From a virus (lineage: Duplodnaviria > Caudoviricetes), in IMG/VR virus record IMGVR_UViG_3300027819_000009, positions 1 through 64,000 of that record: 64,000 nt of DNA; one strand, given 5' to 3'. The notes under the pieces are model-generated. The model was not told where the DNA came from. It ran no database searches and worked only from the letters and a program-made list of their open reading frames with translations. Below are positions 1 through 29,289 of this stretch, piece by piece (position 1 is the stretch's first letter; each line of letters starts with the position of its first letter). A program made the position numbers and the translations under genes.

Positions 1-121
1 TTGGCTTTTGTCAAAGCGAGTGTTCCCCGAAGGCCTCTGGCCGGCGGGGCTTCGAGAAGCGGATCGCATTCCCCAAAAGCAGGGAGGGGGCGCTTGCGCC
101 AGGACAGAGGCTTTTGGGGAA
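1..121. repeat. 144-bp GC-rich element, copy 1 (truncated by the window start)
   Basis: Identical to nt 24-144 of the copy at 1748-1891; followed by CGG and an attC-like hairpin. Confidence 0.95.
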
Positions 122-209
122 CGGTTGAGGCTAAAAGCAGTTGCCTATACAAATACTGCTATGAAATACTAATGCTGATGGCAATTGCTTTTTAGCCTTT
201 GTTATAAGC
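122..209 (-). repeat. attC-like hairpin
   Basis: Arms ggctaaaagcagttgcc / ggcaattgctttttagcc, ending in GTTATAAGC. Confidence 0.75.
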
Positions 210-229
210 TGTTAAAATAAAAATTAGCG

Positions 230-487
230 ATGGCTTTGATAATTATTGGAACTGACAAAATGTGTACCTGCAATTGTGCAATGAAATGCGTTACACAACA
301 TAAAAGCGGAATGATGCCAAGATGCACAAAAGAAGAAATTGAAAACGCAGGACATAAAACAATTGAAGTGAATAGCACAAAAGACGATAAAATTATAAGA
401 GATATTTTGTGCATTGATGGCGATGAAAAGAAGATTAGACTTGACCTTGTTAGAAACAATAAGGTGCGTAGGAAATTTTTATTTTAA
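230..487 (+). CDS. Cassette-borne hypothetical protein
   Basis: ORF exactly fills the unit 201-498. Confidence 0.7.
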   Translation: MALIIIGTDKMCTCNCAMKCVTQHKSGMMPRCTKEEIENAGHKTIEVNSTKDDKIIRDILCIDGDEKKIRLDLVRNNKVRRKFLF

Positions 488-489
488 TT

Positions 490-1005
490 GCTTATAACGG
501 ATGGGGCTAAACGCAGTTACTTAAACTTTTGAGGGAAGGAATTTAATACTAAAAATATGAAAACAAATTGCTATTGCAGAAAAAATAATATCGAGGACAG
601 GCATTCGTGCGAACATTTTAATTATGATAATGAATGTAACCTTGACATAATTAAAAAGGGATATTGTTGGAGCGAGGACAGCCAAAATAAAAGATGCAAA
701 GAACAATGCGAAGATTGTAGAAAGGATATTTTAAATACACCAGAGGTAGGCGATACAGTACATTGGCAATATACGCACCATTTGAATAGCCGAAGCACAA
801 CCGAAATAGTAAAGACTGGTGTATTGATACGAATTGGTCAAACGAAAAAGAAATTTTTGGCTGACTGGACTACCAAAATAGGAGTAGTGCAATTTAAAGG
901 AAACAAAAAGCCTTCACGAATTAGATTTGACCAATTAATTAAGAAGTACTAATGTGCGATGGCAAAAAAAGTTTAAGTAATTGTCGTTTTAGCCTGTGTT
1001 ATAAG
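490..1005 (-). repeat. attC-like site split by an ORF in its loop
   Basis: Left arm gctaaacgcagttacttaaacttt (about 506-529) pairs with right arm aaagtttaagtaattgtcgttttagc (about 968-993); encloses ORF 557-952. Confidence 0.75.
557..952 (+). CDS. Hypothetical protein with Cys-rich N-terminus, inside an attC loop
   Basis: ORF preceded by an A-rich leader. Confidence 0.75.
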   Translation: MKTNCYCRKNNIEDRHSCEHFNYDNECNLDIIKKGYCWSEDSQNKRCKEQCEDCRKDILNTPEVGDTVHWQYTHHLNSRSTTEIVKTGVLIRIGQTKKKFLADWTTKIGVVQFKGNKKPSRIRFDQLIKKY

Positions 1006-1109
1006 GCGAAGCGAACCGTTGGCTTTTCGCCAATGGCTTATAACGTTACACGGCTATAAGTAGTAAACCAAAAAAAGCGAAGGAATTATAAACTAAAAAC
1101 AAAACAAAT

Positions 1110-1376
1110 ATGAAACAAAGATTAGAGATTTTCAAAACAGAAAGAACAAAAATTATGAGCGAAATGTTTGATAACCCAGACAATTGCGGAATTTACCCAA
1201 CCACTAAATGTTTTGAGGCGTTGGATAAATTATATTCGGAATTATGCCGAAAAGAAGCAATAGCATTTGGAGCAGAATACGCTTATAGAAAAGCTAATCC
1301 AGAAGGCAAAATGGATGTACCAAGTATCGTGTATGAAAATGCTGAAAGTTATTACGATAAAAAATTTGATATATAA
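1110..1376 (+). CDS. Hypothetical protein
   Basis: ORF with A-rich leader (aaaacaaatATG). Confidence 0.75.
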   Translation: MKQRLEIFKTERTKIMSEMFDNPDNCGIYPTTKCFEALDKLYSELCRKEAIAFGAEYAYRKANPEGKMDVPSIVYENAESYYDKKFDI

Positions 1377-1398
1377 AATAAAAAACCTAAATATTAAA

Positions 1399-1668
1399 AT
1401 GGAAAATACATTAGAAGATTTAGTTTCGACAATAGAGCGAAATTCAAACGATAACAAAGCGGAAATTACTAACGTGAAATTGTGGGCGGATTCGTGGCGA
1501 GAAGAATTTAGGGACAAGATAAATGAATTGCTTAAAGAATTTGATTTGGAAGAATACGATGTAGAACTGAGAATGGATTCGGTAAAAACGCAATTAAATT
1601 ATTGGCTGAAAGAAATGGATGGAGTACAAGATAAGAACCAAACTGTTTTGAAACTAAAACGTGCGTAG
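1399..1668 (+). CDS. Hypothetical protein (likely start 1399, not 1267)
   Basis: ATG after the upstream stop with an A-rich leader; helical, acidic protein. Confidence 0.7.
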   Translation: MENTLEDLVSTIERNSNDNKAEITNVKLWADSWREEFRDKINELLKEFDLEEYDVELRMDSVKTQLNYWLKEMDGVQDKNQTVLKLKRA

Positions 1669-1747
1669 GCTTTTTGGTTTATTACTTTATAGCCGATGTT
1701 AGCAAAGTGGGTGAGCCTGTGTGTAAGCCCGTTTTAATGTTTGCTAA

Positions 1748-1891
1748 TGCGATCCGCTTTGCGAATGGCTTTGGCTTTTGTCAAAGCGAGTGTTCCCCGA
1801 AGGCCTCTGGCCGGCGGGGCTTCGAGAAGCGGATCGCATTCCCCAAAAGCAGGGAGGGGGCGCTTGCGCCAGGACAGAGGCTTTTGGGGAA
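1748..1891. repeat. 144-bp GC-rich element, copy 2
   Basis: Inserted in TAA|CGG; 88/144 G+C; internal 1827-1850 is the reverse complement of the joined ends. Confidence 0.95.
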
Positions 1892-1979
1892 CGGTTGGGG
1901 CTTAACGAAGTTTGCTTTATACCAAATTAAAAAAATGGAAAAATGATAAAGCAAATTTTGTTTAAGCCCGTGTTATGTG
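1892..1979 (-). repeat. attC-like hairpin
   Basis: Arms ggcttaacgaagtttgctttat / ataaagcaaattttgtttaagcc. Confidence 0.8.
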
Positions 1980-2053
1980 TCTGTAAAATTTTTAATAATT
2001 ATTTTTTGCGAGGGAATTTTAATTTAATCATTAACTAATAAAAACAAAATCAA

Positions 2054-2608
2054 ATGGGAACAAGAAATTTAACAATGGTAATTAGCCAAGAAAAAACGAA
2101 AGTTGCACAATACGGACAATGGGATGGCTGCCCTGAAGGACAAGGTGCAACTGCATTAGAGTTTTTAAGGAAATCAGACCTTAATAAATTTAAAGAGCAA
2201 GTGGACAAACTAAGTTTTTTCACAGAGGAAGAAATCAAAGCTATTGACAGCGATGGTAATTGGAAGGACAAATATCCTTATTTGAGTAGGGATATGGGCG
2301 CGGAAATATTAAAAGCCATTTACGATGGGCAAGTGGAAAAACTTATCAATAAAGAAGCGTTTGCTGGAGATAGTTTGATGAACGAATGGACTTATGTAAT
2401 TGACTTAGATAAAAACACCTTTGAAGTTTATGAAGGGCTTAATCAAAAACCATTAGCCGAAACAGAAAGATTTTTCAGCTACTTTAATCATCCCGAACAC
2501 AGGACTGAAAAATATTACCCTGTTAAACTTGCAAAGACATATTCGATTGCTCAATTGCCAACCGAAGAAGAATTTATTGCTGACTTTACTGAAAAGGAAG
2601 AAGAATAA
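2054..2608 (+). CDS. Cassette-borne conserved phage hypothetical protein
   Basis: 184-aa ORF filling unit 1972-2666; MGTRNLT...YGQWDG...EWTYVIDLD resembles a common phage family. Confidence 0.8.
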   Translation: MGTRNLTMVISQEKTKVAQYGQWDGCPEGQGATALEFLRKSDLNKFKEQVDKLSFFTEEEIKAIDSDGNWKDKYPYLSRDMGAEILKAIYDGQVEKLINKEAFAGDSLMNEWTYVIDLDKNTFEVYEGLNQKPLAETERFFSYFNHPEHRTEKYYPVKLAKTYSIAQLPTEEEFIADFTEKEEE

Positions 2609-2658
2609 TCATTTAATCATTTGTGCGGTGGAAAAAATAATTATTAAAAATTTTATTG

Positions 2659-2738
2659 CACATAACGTTCCGCAGCTTTGCGTCTGTTGTGCGTTGGATA
2701 GTGAGGTAGGAGAATAGCGCAAAGGTGATGTTACCAAA
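2659..2738 (-). repeat. attC-like hairpin (uninterrupted)
   Basis: CACATAAC...ctttgcg / cgcaaag...GTTACC. Confidence 0.7.
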
Positions 2739-2800
2739 GTGTGTAAGGAATTTGAGCGTAGGCTCGTTGTTTAATTAATAAAAATAAAAAAGCGAAGGAT

Positions 2801-3151
2801 ATGGAAATAAAAATGAGAATTGTTGTGCCTGATGATTACACAGGAAACGGTATTAAGTTAACCGCAGGAACGCAAATTGAAATAATAAGGCAATCTGAAT
2901 TGGTCAGAGAGAATAACTCCATTACAGGGGAGGAGTTTACAAAAAGGATGAATGAAGTTATTAGAAAGCACTTCGGATATTTTGGGAGTAAGGTTGATAA
3001 GGCGTGTGATGAAATTATACGGACAGCTTGGGAGTATAATATTGCGAGTAAAAGCCATAAATGTAGAGATTGCCCCAAAATATTAAATGAGGATGATGGA
3101 GATATTATTGCAATTGGAGTTTGCTCAACTTGTAACACTACCAGTGCGTAG
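2801..3151 (+). CDS. Cassette-borne hypothetical protein
   Basis: ORF within unit 2730-3186; C-terminal CxxC...CxxC. Confidence 0.7.
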   Translation: MEIKMRIVVPDDYTGNGIKLTAGTQIEIIRQSELVRENNSITGEEFTKRMNEVIRKHFGYFGSKVDKACDEIIRTAWEYNIASKSHKCRDCPKILNEDDGDIIAIGVCSTCNTTSA

Positions 3152-3186
3152 GCTTTTATTTTTATTAATTAAACAATGTTTGGTAA

Positions 3187-3330
3187 TGCGATCCGCTTTG
3201 CGAATGGCTTTGGCTTTTGTCAAAGCGAGTGTTCCCCGAAGGCCTCTGGCCGGCGGGGCTTCGAGAAGCGGATCGCATTCCCCAAAAGCAGGGAGGGGGC
3301 GCTTGCGCCAGGACAGAGGCTTTTGGGGAA
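3187..3330. repeat. 144-bp GC-rich element, copy 3
   Basis: Identical sequence, inserted in GGTAA|CGG. Confidence 0.95.
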
Positions 3331-3423
3331 CGGACGGGGCTTGGCGATAGTGCCACCAAGCAACCGATAAATTCAAGGCACAAAGCTGATTGGTGGCATT
3401 TTGCCAAGCCCATGTTACCAGCA
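3331..3423 (-). repeat. attC-like hairpin
   Basis: Arms gggcttggcgatagtgccacc / ggtggcattttgccaagccc. Confidence 0.85.
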
Positions 3424-3463
3424 GTATATTTAAAATTTAGGGAGGCATTAAAACAAAATTACA

Positions 3464-3733
3464 ATGGGAAATTTAGTAGGATTAGAAGGAACTAATGGCA
3501 GAGAGATGGAAGCTGTTTTTATAAAAAAGCCATCTGATATTAGAAAAATATTGCGGGCTGGAAAGGGAGCAACGACAGCCGATGATAACGGAGCTATAAA
3601 TATTTGGCGTGATGATGAGGGCATGATAAGATGCGATGCGATGGCTTATATGCGCTCACTTGAAAAGAAGAAATATAAAACGCTGACAGAGGCTGAGAAG
3701 TGGGTTGCTAAATGGCTAAATAAGATACGCTAA
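3464..3733 (+). CDS. Cassette-borne hypothetical protein
   Basis: ORF within unit 3414-3767. Confidence 0.75.
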   Translation: MGNLVGLEGTNGREMEAVFIKKPSDIRKILRAGKGATTADDNGAINIWRDDEGMIRCDAMAYMRSLEKKKYKTLTEAEKWVAKWLNKIR

Positions 3734-3767
3734 TGTGCGCTGGCAATTTTAAATATATTGCTGGTAA

Positions 3768-3911
3768 TGCGATCCGCTTTGCGAATGGCTTTGGCTTTTG
3801 TCAAAGCGAGTGTTCCCCGAAGGCCTCTGGCCGGCGGGGCTTCGAGAAGCGGATCGCATTCCCCAAAAGCAGGGAGGGGGCGCTTGCGCCAGGACAGAGG
3901 CTTTTGGGGAA
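3768..3911. repeat. 144-bp GC-rich element, copy 4
   Basis: Identical sequence, inserted in GGTAA|CGG. Confidence 0.95.
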
Positions 3912-3990
3912 CGGTAAGTATTGGTTTAGTAAAGCCATACCAATACTTCAAATAAAAAATGGCTTTATTGAACCAATACATTGTTAAATT
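3912..3990 (-). repeat. attC-like hairpin
   Basis: Arms gtattggtttagtaaagccat / atggctttattgaaccaatac. Confidence 0.8.
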
Positions 3991-4007
3991 TAGTTATTTT
4001 AAAAAAT

Positions 4008-4199
4008 ATGGCGGCATTATTTATAGGATTTGGAATTGAGTTTTTTTTTCGTTCACTTATTATATTAGCAAATATTTTTCTTATTGTGATTTGCTATAAA
4101 GGAATAAGGGAATTAAATGCTGATAGTGAAAAAAACAAAAAAGAATTGGCTAAAATGAAGGAAGAATATAAACGAGATTATGGTACGGATATTTTTTAA
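4008..4199 (+). CDS. Cassette-borne small membrane protein
   Basis: Hydrophobic N-terminal half; ATG at 4008. Confidence 0.6.
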   Translation: MAALFIGFGIEFFFRSLIILANIFLIVICYKGIRELNADSEKNKKELAKMKEEYKRDYGTDIF

Positions 4200-4207
4200 A
4201 ATAATTG

Positions 4208-4303
4208 AATTTAACGGACGAGGGTTGGCGAAGTGCCGCTAACGAAAACCTCAAATTTAGCACAAAACTACCTGCGGCATTTTGCCAAACCCGTGTTATG
4301 GGA
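4208..4303 (-). repeat. attC-like hairpin (uninterrupted)
   Basis: AATTTAAC ggacga gggttggcgaagtgccgc / gcggcattttgccaaaccc gtGTTATGGG. Confidence 0.85.
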
Positions 4304-4350
4304 TAGTTTTAAAAACCTTTTAGGGTGGGCATTTAAACAACAAATAAAAA

Positions 4351-4728
4351 ATGGAAACAAAAATTAAAAATGCAAGTGTAAAAGTAATGTTGAGTTATGA
4401 CTACTCACATTTTGAGGCTTCAATGTCATTAGAAAATGATAATGGATTGACCGTAAAAGAAATTGATGCTGCCCGTAAAGACTGCCAACGATTAGCGGAT
4501 AAAGCTGTGGCACAATACAAAACTGCAAAGGCACAAGCAGCTTCAAGAAATGACGGGCAATACAAAATGAAAAACTTTGAAGCCGAATGTATCAAAATCA
4601 AAGCGAAGGATGAACACGACAGAACGCTGAAAGAAATTGCAATGTTGAAGCAATACGAAAATGAAAACTGGCAGGCTCAATTTGATTATGATTACGATTA
4701 TGATGATGACGATAATTACGGTTTTTAA
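4351..4728 (+). CDS. Cassette-borne hypothetical protein
   Basis: ORF within unit 4295-4764; acidic DYDYD tail. Confidence 0.8.
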   Translation: METKIKNASVKVMLSYDYSHFEASMSLENDNGLTVKEIDAARKDCQRLADKAVAQYKTAKAQAASRNDGQYKMKNFEAECIKIKAKDEHDRTLKEIAMLKQYENENWQAQFDYDYDYDDDDNYGF

Positions 4729-4764
4729 GGTGCGGTGGGAAAAGGTTTTTAAAATTTCCCATAA

Positions 4765-4908
4765 TGCGATCCGCTTTGCGAATGGCTTTGGCTTTTGTCA
4801 AAGCGAGTGTTCCCCGAAGGCCTCTGGCCGGCGGGGCTTCGAGAAGCGGATCGCATTCCCCAAAAGCAGGGAGGGGGCGCTTGCGCCAGGACAGAGGCTT
4901 TTGGGGAA
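4765..4908. repeat. 144-bp GC-rich element, copy 5
   Basis: Identical sequence, inserted in CATAA|CGG. Confidence 0.95.
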
Positions 4909-4995: not shown

Positions 4996-5202
4996 ATGTA
5001 CGAAGAAATAAAAAAGACAAGTTACTATTATGTGATAGTACATAAAGTAAGCGGTAAAATGCTTTTGCAGGATTGTAAAGCACCGATATATTGGAGCATG
5101 AAAGTTGCAACCGAAAGATGCAAATTATTCAGCGACTTTAAGGTGGCAAAAATACCTGCAAAAGTTTTTAACGAAGCGGTAAGCAAAGCAATAGGTAATT
5201 GA
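4996..5202 (+). CDS. Cassette-borne hypothetical protein
   Basis: ATG at 4996 within unit 4954-5209. Confidence 0.65.
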   Translation: MYEEIKKTSYYYVIVHKVSGKMLLQDCKAPIYWSMKVATERCKLFSDFKVAKIPAKVFNEAVSKAIGN

Positions 5203-5590
5203 AGCTAACGTATCGGGGCTAAACGAAGATTTAAACCTTTTGTGCGGTGGGGTTACACTGCATTCACAATATAAATAAATACAAAATGAAAAAGAAAATT
5301 GTTTACGAAACACAGTGGGTTGCGAGGGACAGCCAAAAAGAATACCCTCACGGATGGGGCTTTACTGCACCGTTGGTAGAATTTCCACAGGATGCTGACC
5401 CTGCGTGGTGCGGTGAGATGTGCAGAAAGCATTTGAGTAATGAAAAATTTGAGTGCATTGGAGCAACCCCAAGAGGAGTTATCAATGGACAATTTTCTTT
5501 TGAATACCCAAAGAATGCAGAAGAATGGAAAGCGTACAAAGAGCATGAGCAAGAAAAGGTTTAAATTTTTGTTTTAGCCCTTGTTATAAG
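5202..5590 (-). repeat. attC-like site split by an ORF
   Basis: Arms gggctaaacgaagatttaaacctttt / aaaaggtttaaatttttgttttagccc enclose ORF 5286-5564. Confidence 0.75.
5286..5564 (+). CDS. Hypothetical protein inside an attC loop
   Basis: ATG at 5286 after an A-rich leader. Confidence 0.7.
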   Translation: MKKKIVYETQWVARDSQKEYPHGWGFTAPLVEFPQDADPAWCGEMCRKHLSNEKFECIGATPRGVINGQFSFEYPKNAEEWKAYKEHEQEKV

Positions 5591-5615
5591 TCAGGTGGGC
5601 ATTTTCGCCCACTTG

Positions 5616-5645
5616 CTTATAACGGTATATATACGCAATGCCTTT
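5616..5645 (-). other. Candidate attI recombination site
   Basis: Last core site; minus strand reads gcgtatatataccG^TTATAAG; has no hairpin partner; lies immediately upstream of the integrase start. Confidence 0.5.
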
Positions 5646-5689
5646 AACTATTTAGAAAGCAAAGAGTTATTTTAAGATTATAATAGAAA

Positions 5690-6874
5690 ATGGGAAAGAT
5701 ATTTATTTATAGCCTTGTTTGTCCGGTTGGCGAATCTGTTAAATATGTTGGAAAAACCAAAACCGAGTTAAGTATTCGGCTATCTGCCCACCTAACCGAT
5801 TCTGGAGAAAACATAGAAAAAAACCTATGGATCGGCTCTTTAAAAGAAAAAGGACTGCGACCTGAAATTAAATTACTTGAGGTTACAAATGATGAGTTTT
5901 GGGAAATAAAAGAGGGACAATGGATAGAGAAATTTACTAACGATGGGGTTAAGCTGTTCAATAAAACACTAGATGAAAACCATAAGTTTGTAATTTTAAC
6001 TGCATATTTATCCACATTAAAAAGGCTAAACTACCGTCCCCAAACAATCAAATCTTATAGGGGATATTTTTTATGTTACTTGCGAGATTTTACAGGAAAG
6101 ATTTATAAAGACATTAAGGTTGCTGAAATAACATCTTATTTATCTGAGTTAGTTGAAAATAAAAACATATCGCCGGTTCATCAAAACTCTCTAATCAATG
6201 CCATTAAGTTCTATTATGAAAAAGTATTAAAATACCCTAAACAAACCTACTATATTAGCCGGCCAAGAAAGCCATCTAAAATACGCCCAATTTTATCGCC
6301 AGAACAAGTTTTAAAACTAGTCGATTCTATTAGTAATTTAAAGCAAAAAACCGCAATGCAAATTATATACTCTGGTGCATTGAGAATTGGAGAGGCTGTA
6401 AAACTACTAGTTTGCGACTTTGATTTTAATATCCGAACTTTAATGATTCGGGATGCCAAAGGAGGCAAGGATAGGATAGTAACACTTCCTGAACAAACAA
6501 TGAACTTAGTTAAAATGTATTTAGAAGAATATAAATGTGATTACTGGCTTTTTGAAGGACAGAATAAAGGAGAGTGCTATTCCCCATCTTCTATACAGCA
6601 AGTTTTCGGTAGGCAAATTAAGTCTCTTGGGTTTAATTTAGAACTAACTCCACACTGCCTCCGTCATAGTAGATTAAGCCATGTTTTAAATAGCGGAGTT
6701 AAAATTGAGATGGCTAGTAAATACGCAGGACACAAAAGCATATCTACAACGGCAGATATTTACTATCACTATATGACGGATGATATGCAGTCGCAATTTG
6801 ATGCGGCAGATGAGAAAATACTAACAAAATCAAAACAATTAAATGAACTAAACAACCAAAAACAACTAAAATGA
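5690..6874 (+). CDS. Tyrosine recombinase (integron/Xer-like, SAM-like N domain) with an N-terminal GIY-YIG domain
   Basis: Catalytic set present: LRIGE (R), AKGGKDR (K), HCLRH, GH, TTADIY(Y). First ~90 aa contain IYSL...YVGKT...R...H...E...N of GIY-YIG. Confidence 0.9.
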   Translation: MGKIFIYSLVCPVGESVKYVGKTKTELSIRLSAHLTDSGENIEKNLWIGSLKEKGLRPEIKLLEVTNDEFWEIKEGQWIEKFTNDGVKLFNKTLDENHKFVILTAYLSTLKRLNYRPQTIKSYRGYFLCYLRDFTGKIYKDIKVAEITSYLSELVENKNISPVHQNSLINAIKFYYEKVLKYPKQTYYISRPRKPSKIRPILSPEQVLKLVDSISNLKQKTAMQIIYSGALRIGEAVKLLVCDFDFNIRTLMIRDAKGGKDRIVTLPEQTMNLVKMYLEEYKCDYWLFEGQNKGECYSPSSIQQVFGRQIKSLGFNLELTPHCLRHSRLSHVLNSGVKIEMASKYAGHKSISTTADIYYHYMTDDMQSQFDAADEKILTKSKQLNELNNQKQLK

Positions 6875-23175: not shown

Positions 23176-23248
23176 AGCGGAAGACAGGGTTCGAACCTGC
23201 GACATTTAGAGTGGAAATCTAATACTCTACCAACTGAGCTACTTCCGC
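23176..23248 (-). tRNA. tRNA-Gly(TCC), no encoded CCA
   Basis: Cloverleaf GCGGAAG/CTTCCGC, anticodon loop TTTCCAC, TTCGAAC T-loop, U73; TATATTTG promoter at 23274-23281 (minus strand). Confidence 0.9.
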
Positions 23249-29180: not shown

Positions 29181-29289
29181 TGCAAAAGGATGGATTCGAA
29201 CCACCGACTTGGGCCAAATAAGGCATGGCTATTATTTCCCCATCTCCTTTTTCTCAATGCCGACCGCTCTACCGCTGAGCTACTTTTGC
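29181..29289 (-). tRNA. tRNA-like gene with about 36 extra nt in the anticodon/variable region (intron-containing or pseudo)
   Basis: Acceptor GCAAAAG/CTTTTGC-A, D-arm GCTC-AGCGGTA-GAGC and T-arm GGTGG-TTCGAAT-CCATC are intact; 109 nt in total. Confidence 0.7.

Follow-up and report, generated by a model that had tools for sequence, protein, structure and literature searches.

The window, which comprises the first 64,000 nt of a 74,657-nt virus record, opens on a cassette array that spans from the record end to position 5623, where it abuts a conserved attI-like platform and a recombinase gene (Table 1). The array consists of alternating half-sites of the xxxxTAAC and GTTAxxxx types, which make up 11 half-site pairs. 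Its ORFs point toward the recombinase gene, and the + strand is the sense strand of all of them. The order by which integrons are recognised, an attI beside the integrase gene and then an array of attC cassettes, is present here.

XerA proteins are the best solved relatives of the candidate cassette-moving enzyme. Against TIGR02249 it scored 131.8 bits, with a cut-off of 265, its alignment to VchIntI4 skips chain residues 208-245, and the additional domain specific to IntI was not found in it. Judged from these sequence comparisons, the enzyme is not a true IntI or canonical integron integrase. Genes of the IS110 (DEDD), HUH (Y1) and reverse-transcriptase types were searched for and none was found in the 74.7-kb record. 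Beside the array lies a methyltransferase gene that is widespread in phages, in contexts that are not syntenic, and it is therefore no lead to further arrays. A 184-aa cassette protein has 2,617 homologues; since contig L054 carries one of them in an ordinary early-gene row without hairpin sites, this protein is of no help in mapping cassette boundaries.

Table 1. Features of the array, the element and the recombinase gene (window positions unless stated; a caret marks the crossover).
Feature	Position	Strand	Remarks
Partial element copy	1..121	+	nt 24-144, cut by record start; model match 135 bits, model positions 24-144
Empty TAAC half-site	495..498	+	followed by GG
Empty TAAC half-site	1041		followed by GT
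Reference element copy	1748..1891	+	144 nt
Stem A of reference copy	1748-1760/1826-1838	+	
Inner stem of reference copy	1762-1765/1821-1824	+	
Hairpin a1 of reference copy	1768-1775/1780-1787	+	
Internal half-site	1790..1807	+	like array GTT-type half-sites (..TG^TTC..)
Hairpin a2 of reference copy	1795-1799/1815-1819 and 1802-1805/1809-1812	+	
Internal 24-mer	1827..1850	+	complementary to joined ends; 3' arm of stem A and 5' arm of stem B
Stem B of reference copy	1839-1850/1880-1891	+	
Empty TAAC half-site	2663		followed by GT
Identical full element copy	3187..3330	+	
Identical full element copy	3768..3911	+	
Empty TAAC half-site	4212		followed by GG
Identical full element copy	4765..4908	+	
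Empty TAAC half-site	5206		followed by GT
Last array TAAC and attI-like platform	5620..5689	+	conserved, empty here; TAAC followed by GG; 5' of recombinase gene
Recombinase gene	5690..6874	+	GIY-YIG and XerA-like tyrosine recombinase, 394 aa
Partial element copy at record end	74532-74657 of the 74,657-nt record		nt 2-127

Crossover point of the array

The crossover of the whole array was mapped to AA^C by three independent comparisons. The platforms beside six lineages of the recombinase all begin immediately after TAAC; contigs with identical recombinases from different samples (L039, L041 and L042 versus L040) diverge left of TATAAC; and our record and contig L009 have in common a conserved flank plus element that stops at GGGGAA^, beyond which lie unrelated hairpins. 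The conserved platform, 60-90 nt upstream of the recombinase gene, was recognised in seven lineages (our own and six relatives), and the DNA beyond TAAC is variable.

Because the crossover of the array maps to AA^C, the 144-nt element described below occupies ordinary cassette boundaries, and it reads as a cassette-sized unit in the chain and not as an insertion into a site. That the element sits in attC crossover points, and that its removal restores TAAC, as had been predicted, is true of the element but equally true of every cassette in the array. In keeping with a cassette, ..AA^ stands on either side of it, and joining its ends restores an inverted-repeat site of its own, as happens over 26 nt in the second family (L036). 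Its right end fits the TTG..AAC half-site pattern of the array, and the short hairpin between its complementary boxes matches the 30-nt array hairpins at 1009-1043, 1709-1748 and 5582-5620.

Copies and fold of the element

The element is ORF-less and is present as four full and one or two partial copies that are 100% identical. Five identical copies with 61% GC had been predicted; the four full copies agree over all 144 nt, the sequence at 1-121 is nt 24-144 of another, and the computed GC content is 0.611. Because both record ends are partial copies, the total is five if the record is circular and six if it is not, and the 104-nt terminal direct repeat of the record falls entirely within the element. 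At the record end, the copy starts with C in place of T and its left flank differs, lacking TAA; this non-TAA flank is conserved in L009. The four full copies are all flanked as ..TAA^element^CGG.., with a boundary that is ambiguous by 2 nt since the element ends in AA. The genome minus the copies holds 43 TAACGG and about 4,760 TAA sites (both strands), yet all four full copies lie at array sites in one orientation, beyond what chance would give. The element fills about a third of the array slots, and 6 of the 11 sites are without it. Besides a recent spread, gene conversion or assembly consensus could also account for the identity of the copies.

Joined together, the last 12 and the first 12 nt of the element are the exact reverse complement of its nt 80-103, a predicted match that we computed directly and that extends over all 24 nt. 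Folding of both strands, suggested with the original prediction, gave strong structure on either one: the + strand forms two back-to-back hairpin domains (-81 kcal/mol, z -5.6), and the - strand reached z -6.3. In its layout, a single, perfectly paired site of 12 + 12 bp is combined with a three-way junction of 65 nt and a hairpin of 29 nt; the junction takes the place of the loop or gene of other cassettes, and the hairpin that of the gene. Between our record and L009, a single stem substitution converts a G-T pair to A-T.

The core of the element's own site is AAT/ATT in our family, matching the variant core that had been predicted, and AAA/TTT in L036, in contrast to AAC/GTT at all other sites. 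Of the canonical attC features sought (an AAC/GTT core, an unpaired central spacer and extrahelical bases), none was found, the core being variant and the stem perfect, without the asymmetric internal loop seen in the array hairpins. An AAC/GTT core arises in the element solely via an alternative stem, in which its right end and the flanking C pair over 18 bp with nt 43-60. The original prediction was right about this 18-bp pairing but placed its internal arm at 1792-1809; the arm lies at 1790-1807, a direct repeat of 1836-1850, and the stem includes two G-T pairs. Both families have this alternative fold, but the dumbbell is the stronger by 7 to 22 kcal/mol. None of the Rfam covariance models matched the element at gathering score, with only chance-level miRNA and snoRNA matches below it. 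Scanning in and at the element found no promoter or terminator signal, and a terminator or promoter role was dropped.

A second element family in a related phage

A related groundwater phage (L036-L038), whose recombinase is 57% identical to ours, carries a 141-nt element of different sequence at the same position, in three identical copies and one partial copy, at (T/C)AA^..GAA^CG. In each of the three assemblies a copy abuts the platform directly, at the site equivalent to 5620..5689, and one copy in L036 is followed by CGT. Both families have every helix in common (13/15, 4/4, 8/8, 5/6, 4/4 and 12/13 bp). A model built from our family only recovered all L036 copies at full length, with 34.6 bits on the + strand versus 10.1 bits on the - strand. 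In an alignment fitted to the structure, 98.6% of cells are paired and 23 of 50 pairs are changed on both sides, versus 1-3 when the partners are slid. Since the helices are kept through these two-sided changes, we take this to be a real, structure-constrained element family.

These copies also bear on the choice of site. The AA^CGG position proposed originally holds for all four full copies, as TAA^CGG, but not for the record-end copy, which lacks TAA, nor for the L036 copy followed by CGT. Likewise, the three TAACGT sites are empty as had been claimed, but three TAACGG sites (495, 4212 and 5620) are empty too. Avoidance of TAACGT is not significant (p about 0.12, hypergeometric count) and is contradicted by the same L036 copy; CGG as a requirement for the element, not significant in our own array either, was rejected on that copy as well.

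Exact 22-24-mers of either family had no match in IMG/VR or in species genomes (185,579 species genomes for the exact 22-mer), and an exact-k-mer search among metagenomes gave matches only in two short Hainich groundwater contigs. The IMG/VR relatives of both recombinases are only 29-38% identical and contain no such element, and a platform pattern search of IMG/VR returned no match. In Polaribacter Freya phages, length varies just upstream of a distant integrase, but comparable hairpins or repeats were not found there.

Origin and possible role of the element

Vibrio chromosomal integrons contain ORF-less paralogous cassettes with many near-identical copies per array, for which both a selfish integron element and an array function have been proposed (Boucher et al. 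2006, PMC1382264). Our element is similarly ORF-less, cassette-bounded, multi-copy in one array and confined to close relatives; it differs in being virus-borne, beside a GIY-YIG–XerA-like recombinase without the IntI insertion, in measuring only 144 nt, with a perfect 24-bp stem and variant core as its site, and in the direction of the surrounding ORFs, which point toward the recombinase gene. Other ORF-less cassettes, in Treponema and Xanthomonas, carry promoters or sRNAs (review PMC8876359); like these, the element could act through nucleic acid, but it has no promoter-like signal, and its multi-copy state and conserved three-way junction stand out. The attC clusters (CALINs) and integrons of phage genomes are short clusters, mostly without integrase (Qi et al. 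2023, PMC9892861), and neither the abstract nor section 3.4 of that paper mentions a repeated ORF-less unit. Set against these, attC-like sites and cassettes on a phage are common to both, but the array of our record runs to 15 units, served by a dedicated recombinase and a platform. Like the element, IS1111-attC insertion sequences and group IIC-attC introns occur specifically in attC sites, keep to one orientation and leave no target duplication; however, they measure 1-2 kb and encode or need an enzyme of their own (DEDD transposase, RT) that is absent from the record, whereas the element consists of half-sites of the array itself. REP/BIME and IS200/IS605-derived palindromic elements are likewise short, GC-rich, intergenic, hairpin-forming repeats, but they depend on a Y1 HUH enzyme, and none was found in the record; their hairpins are subterminal with targets set upstream, whereas those of the element reach its very ends, at cassette crossovers.

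The element is probably an ORF-less mini-cassette that is moved and amplified by the recombinase of the array. We favour this reading because the crossover was mapped without reference to the element and all copies lie there in a single orientation; because the element is built from the array's own half-site parts; because the second family has the same helices at the same position; because the record encodes no other transposition enzyme; and because the highly paralogous non-coding cassettes of Vibrio arrays give a precedent (PMC1382264). The original view of a mini-cassette of the recombination system thus keeps the perfect 24-bp stem predicted for its circular form, but not the wording of an intruder in a site. 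A foreign MITE was rejected, as the element has no terminal inverted repeats (each end pairs with an internal arm) and no target duplication beyond the 2-nt AA ambiguity; as far as sequence can tell, it is part of the cassette recombination system. On this reading it would be a cassette that is selfish, or accessory at best, and would not serve to carry genes.

In the mechanism that we propose, which assumes, by analogy, single-strand chemistry for the recombinase, units would be exchanged at AA^C beside the conserved platform. The integrated element would form two abutting hairpins as a single strand, and the excised circle a rod. The recombinase may excise the element and re-insert it at the platform or at other half-sites, while the donor copy would stay behind through replicative resolution. 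Such a hairpin, very stable and free of bulges, could be a strong substrate and lead to build-up to about a third of the slots, but the AAT/ATT or AAA/TTT core and the missing asymmetric internal loop mean that the element may instead be a poor one. It is possible, though doubtful, that the dumbbell elements have co-evolved, as a specialised lineage, with a viral cassette system that is undescribed and IntI-independent. The element would then be either a hyperparasite, reduced to a perfected hairpin substrate and multiplying within the array, or a nucleic-acid device that controls the recombination or expression of its neighbours through the conserved three-way junction and the two alternative folds.

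We think it unlikely that the fold mainly serves the array as punctuation, with spread by the recombinase being secondary. As RNA it would be a stabiliser, a processing site or a regulator with two alternative folds in a polycistronic + strand transcript; as single-stranded DNA it would enhance recombination or insulate cassettes from one another. The whole architecture, with the inner hairpins and the duplicated half-site that allows the alternative pairing, is kept in two diverged families, and retention of the entire three-way junction beyond the known needs of a recombination site hints at an additional function. Moreover, both the G-T pairs and the score of the model point to the + strand, the sense strand of the cassette ORFs, the sole stem substitution relative to L009 turns G-T into A-T, and ORF-less cassettes with sRNA or promoter function are on record (PMC8876359). 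However, stems of 12-15 bp that pair perfectly, with no wobble, are commoner in DNA sites than in old RNAs, neither an Rfam family nor a promoter or terminator signal was found, and 6 of 11 sites do without the element. It is less probable still that the element originally belongs to the attI-like site or array boundary, as its outer arm, the internal copies being relics of rare left-edge recombination: this would account for its origin but not for its repeated exact spread, since in two independent families the internal copies begin and end at precise, identical boundaries, and contig L010 has the element behind an ORF, yet another context. In its support, the record-end copy lies in conserved non-cassette DNA with a non-TAA left junction, here and in L009, the analogous element stands directly against the platform in the three assemblies of L036-L038, and an integron-type insertion would move the outer attI arm to the far end of the array, which is the place of the record-end copy. 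The array boundary may include that copy as a fixed part, and the mobile copies possibly derive from this one.

We give little credence to an unrelated non-autonomous transposon (IS200/IS605-type or IS110/IS1111-type) that would insert at attC-like sites with the help of a host enzyme acting in trans. Its insertion 3' of ..AA without duplication, in one orientation throughout and with hairpins at both ends, would suit such an element, the common AA core would also fit IS110-type chemistry, and attC-targeting IS1111 and group IIC elements exist. Yet the record has no DEDD, Y1 HUH or RT gene, although a host-encoded transposase might still act in trans, the exact 22-mer is absent from the 185,579 species genomes and IMG/VR, the constant flank (CGG/CGT) is downstream while IS200/IS605 targets are upstream, and the parts of the element match array half-sites. 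Least credible of all is that assembly produced the repeat artificially, by collapse or as a chimera. The record starts and ends inside the element, the identical copies exceed common k-mers in length, and at least 8 related contigs break off a short way 5' of the recombinase gene; but the element-flank junctions recur across independent assemblies (L009 and L010; L036, L037 and L038), and each of the four copies has a pair of flanks of its own.

These repeats are points where short-read assemblies of such viruses break, which for this record led to a false terminal-repeat call; cassette arrays of this kind are therefore probably under-reported. The mini-cassette already has known kin in the paralogous non-coding cassettes of Vibrio integrons, and the variant described here is new. 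Ever since multi-copy non-coding cassettes were described in Vibrio, it has been asked whether they are selfish or of use to the integron. In the present case the question comes down to 144 nt of fully defined fold, for which nature supplies a second family with compensatory changes, in a viral array that is small and has a recombinase of its own; excision, integration and strand choice can thereby be tested directly.

Identical copies of the element in a cassette array

The window covers bases 1-64000 of an IMG/VR virus record of 74,657 nt. The array runs from the record end to 5623 and consists of small plus-strand ORFs without Pfam matches. Between them, half-sites form a regular chain, in which one hairpin arm comes after xxxxTAAC and another before GTTAxxxx. 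Reading rightwards, every GTTA box has its complement in the TAAC box that comes next, and every TAAC-side arm has its own in the following GTTA-side arm; integron cassettes obey this logic. The last TAAC, at 5620-5623, closes the array, and after it comes the platform, a conserved attI-like stretch that leads to the recombinase gene. Counted by AA|C units, it contains 15 units, 5 of which are the element.

As originally predicted, the 144-nt element is present in identical copies lacking an ORF: the four full copies (starting at 1748, 3187, 3768 and 4765) are 100% identical, and no ORF common to the copies was found. Its GC content is 61%, against about 37% in the surroundings. With the partial copies (see the table), this gives a total of five for a record with joined ends and of six otherwise. 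The 104-nt 'direct terminal repeat' (record 74554-74657 plus window 1-104) lies wholly within the element, so the circularity call of the record and its 66% completeness estimate should be taken cautiously, and the circular, complete call for the virus may be a repeat artefact. L009, a short Hainich groundwater contig carrying an element of the same family, supports the order methyltransferase-spacer-element-array. The left flank of the record-end copy is not TAA, and the same flank is conserved in L009; this copy may belong to the array boundary or be an immobile source.

Features of the record, the array and the element
Feature	Position	Strand	Description
Partial element copy	window 1-121		element nt 24-144
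Partial element copy	record 74532-74657 (record end)		element nt 2-127
Domain A	element nt 1-91		three-way junction with two inner hairpins, closed by a 13-bp stem
Domain B	element nt 92-144		12-bp stem, 29-nt loop
GTGCG-N-(A/T)-GG sites	window 464, 954, 1661, 2623, 2689, 3144, 3735, 4730, 5242	+	
394-aa protein	window 5690-6874		GIY-YIG domain fused to tyrosine recombinase; gene 67 nt past TAAC 5620-5623
Second tyrosine recombinase and methyltransferase	record 72481-74225 (L008 1117-2861)		Xer-like, 319 aa, with N6/N4 DNA methyltransferase; before the record-end element copy, just short of the far array end

Several other properties of the array were observed. In three units the hairpin arms enclose the ORF or ORFs in the 'loop' (window 494-1016, 1036-1712 and 5202-5590), leaving only an 18-33-nt hairpin between complementary TAAC and GTTA boxes; the element has the layout of these units minus the gene. 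The motif GTGCG-N-(A/T)-GG has nine occurrences in the 74.7-kb record, always within the array and on the plus strand. Most lie just 3' of a cassette ORF, and the distance to the following TAAC crossover is 33-87 nt, usually 33-43 nt. One cassette (window 2054-2608) encodes a 184-aa protein from a large family (2,617 homologues) with no Pfam model; since a homologue in contig L054 lies in a normal row of phage genes, the cassette seems to be a captured phage gene. The hairpin pattern of the array (TAACGG..GGGGCT...AGCCC.TGTTA) matches canonical-looking attC sites in genome contigs of Pseudanabaena (L052 2220-2300) and Microcoleus (L053 5966-6051). The upstream gene in L052 is oriented in the same way relative to the site; in the window array, the crossover maps instead to the TAAC side.

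Position of the crossover

Relatives of the 394-aa protein, with 52-65% identity, were retrieved together with the contigs that encode them. Among the contigs with DNA returned, eight begin only 47-91 nt before the gene (L035, L037-L043, L049), as if the assemblies always broke there at a variable or repetitive array. Positions 1-47 of L035, which has the closest recombinase relative, are an apparent Nextera adaptor, an assembly contaminant. Wherever upstream DNA is visible, the platform starts immediately after TAAC, or after GAAC where the element of L036, another Hainich groundwater phage contig, abuts it. Four contigs from different samples, with an identical recombinase, have the platform in common and two different sequences left of TATAAC. 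Finally, the record and L009 match at 95.5% in the methyltransferase-side spacer, have the element in common with three substitutions, and part ways directly after its final AA. Taken together, these sequence comparisons indicate that AA|C on the plus strand is where the array exchanges its units, and that the element boundaries coincide with the crossover, exactly where the element had been placed. Removal of a copy does restore TAAC, as had also been proposed, but so does removal of any other unit.

Homologous hairpin modules (window 1889-1984 and L036 2995-3086, 77%) lie between unrelated ORFs, and L009 and L010, the latter a second short groundwater contig, diverge after a GTTA box, suggesting that exchange may also occur at GTT half-sites. 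In the genomes of Freya_1 to Freya_10, the DNA immediately before the gene for a distantly related integrase varies by up to 4.9 kb; positions 1-4147 of Polaribacter phage Freya_10 (L051) showed no comparable chain of hairpins.

Could the repeats have another origin? A pure assembly product was rejected, because the junctions between element and flank are found again in five independent contigs. Chance placement was likewise excluded: 43 TAACGG sites are available, yet all four full copies occupy array sites, in one orientation. Nor is the element an ordinary MITE, in agreement with the original prediction, since both terminal inverted repeats and a duplication are absent. The record contains no DEDD, HUH or RT gene, the element matches no Rfam family, and no promoter- or terminator-like signal was found at it. 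Searches of 185,579 species genomes and of IMG/VR with an exact 22-mer of the element gave no match.

A fold conserved in two families

The element folds far better than its shuffles (z -5.6 and -6.3 for the two strands). Its domains A and B abut without a spacer, and for this reason the joined ends are the exact reverse complement of the internal segment 1827-1850, as predicted. Its own core is AAT instead of AAC; in the L036 element described next it is AAA.

L036, whose recombinase is 57% identical, carries three identical copies and one cut copy of a 141-nt element, placed as (T/C)AA|...GAA|CG(G/T), the joined ends of which complement an internal 26-mer. One copy sits directly on the platform, an arrangement confirmed by two independent Logan assemblies; the corresponding site in the window is empty. 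MAFFT could not align the two elements in register, but their anatomy is the same: the independent folds of the two families agree in their helices and in the order of these (13/15, 4/4, 8/8, 5/6, 4/4 and 12/13 bp). A covariance model built from the window's own family and its fold only found 3/3 L036 copies at full length, with 34.6 bits on the plus strand versus 10.1 on the minus strand. In the two-family alignment, itself fitted to this model, 98.6% of cells are paired, and both sides have changed in 23 of 50 pairs, versus 1-3 pairs with the partners displaced by 1-3 columns. Conservation between the two families extends to the whole three-way junction.

In both families the 5' arm of stem B, the stem of domain B, recurs as a further copy in the second inner hairpin, where it follows ..TG and resembles the GTT half-sites of the array. 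This copy can pair with the right end of the element plus the flanking C. The alternative stem originally proposed for that end can thus form, though the dumbbell is more stable by 6-7 kcal/mol in the window element and by about 22 in L036.

The recombinase, known precedents and the element's way of life

The GIY-YIG domain of the 394-aa protein scores 23.2 bits (cut-off 22.6). The closest structures to the recombinase are archaeal XerA; aligned to Vibrio IntI4 it lacks an IntI-specific segment of about 38 residues, and it scores under the integron-integrase cut-off. The fusion forms a family (with L035-L043, L049 and L050), some members having 460-470 aa, with a conserved upstream platform. 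The putative structure-specific nuclease fused to it could resolve the unusual junction that arises in hairpin recombination. Elsewhere, the window has two minus-strand tRNA genes (23176-23248 and 29181-29289); the latter match covers 109 nt for a 71-position model, and an insertion or intron is possible.

Among known systems, the paralogous non-coding cassettes of Vibrio arrays come closest; they reach up to 45 copies, and the same 'selfish or beneficial' alternatives were stated for them (PMC1382264). ORF-less cassettes with promoters or sRNAs are already known (PMC8876359), and the account in PMC9892861 includes attC clusters in phages. What is new is that the host is a virus, that the enzyme is fused to GIY-YIG and is no IntI, that the site is perfect, without bulges and with a variant core, and that the architecture is strongly conserved.

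The element is shown to be bounded by crossovers, made of the half-site vocabulary of the array, conserved in structure in two lineages, and multi-copy and identical within each genome. The observation behind the proposed cassette parasite, a cassette-crossover unit, is confirmed, and its interpretation is supported in part. Integrons use folded single-strand sites, one-strand exchange and replicative resolution. By analogy, the recombinase would excise the element as a small circle and then re-insert it; the donor copy would stay in one daughter, so that copies would accumulate between other cassettes. Such an element may be purely selfish, or it may also be useful.
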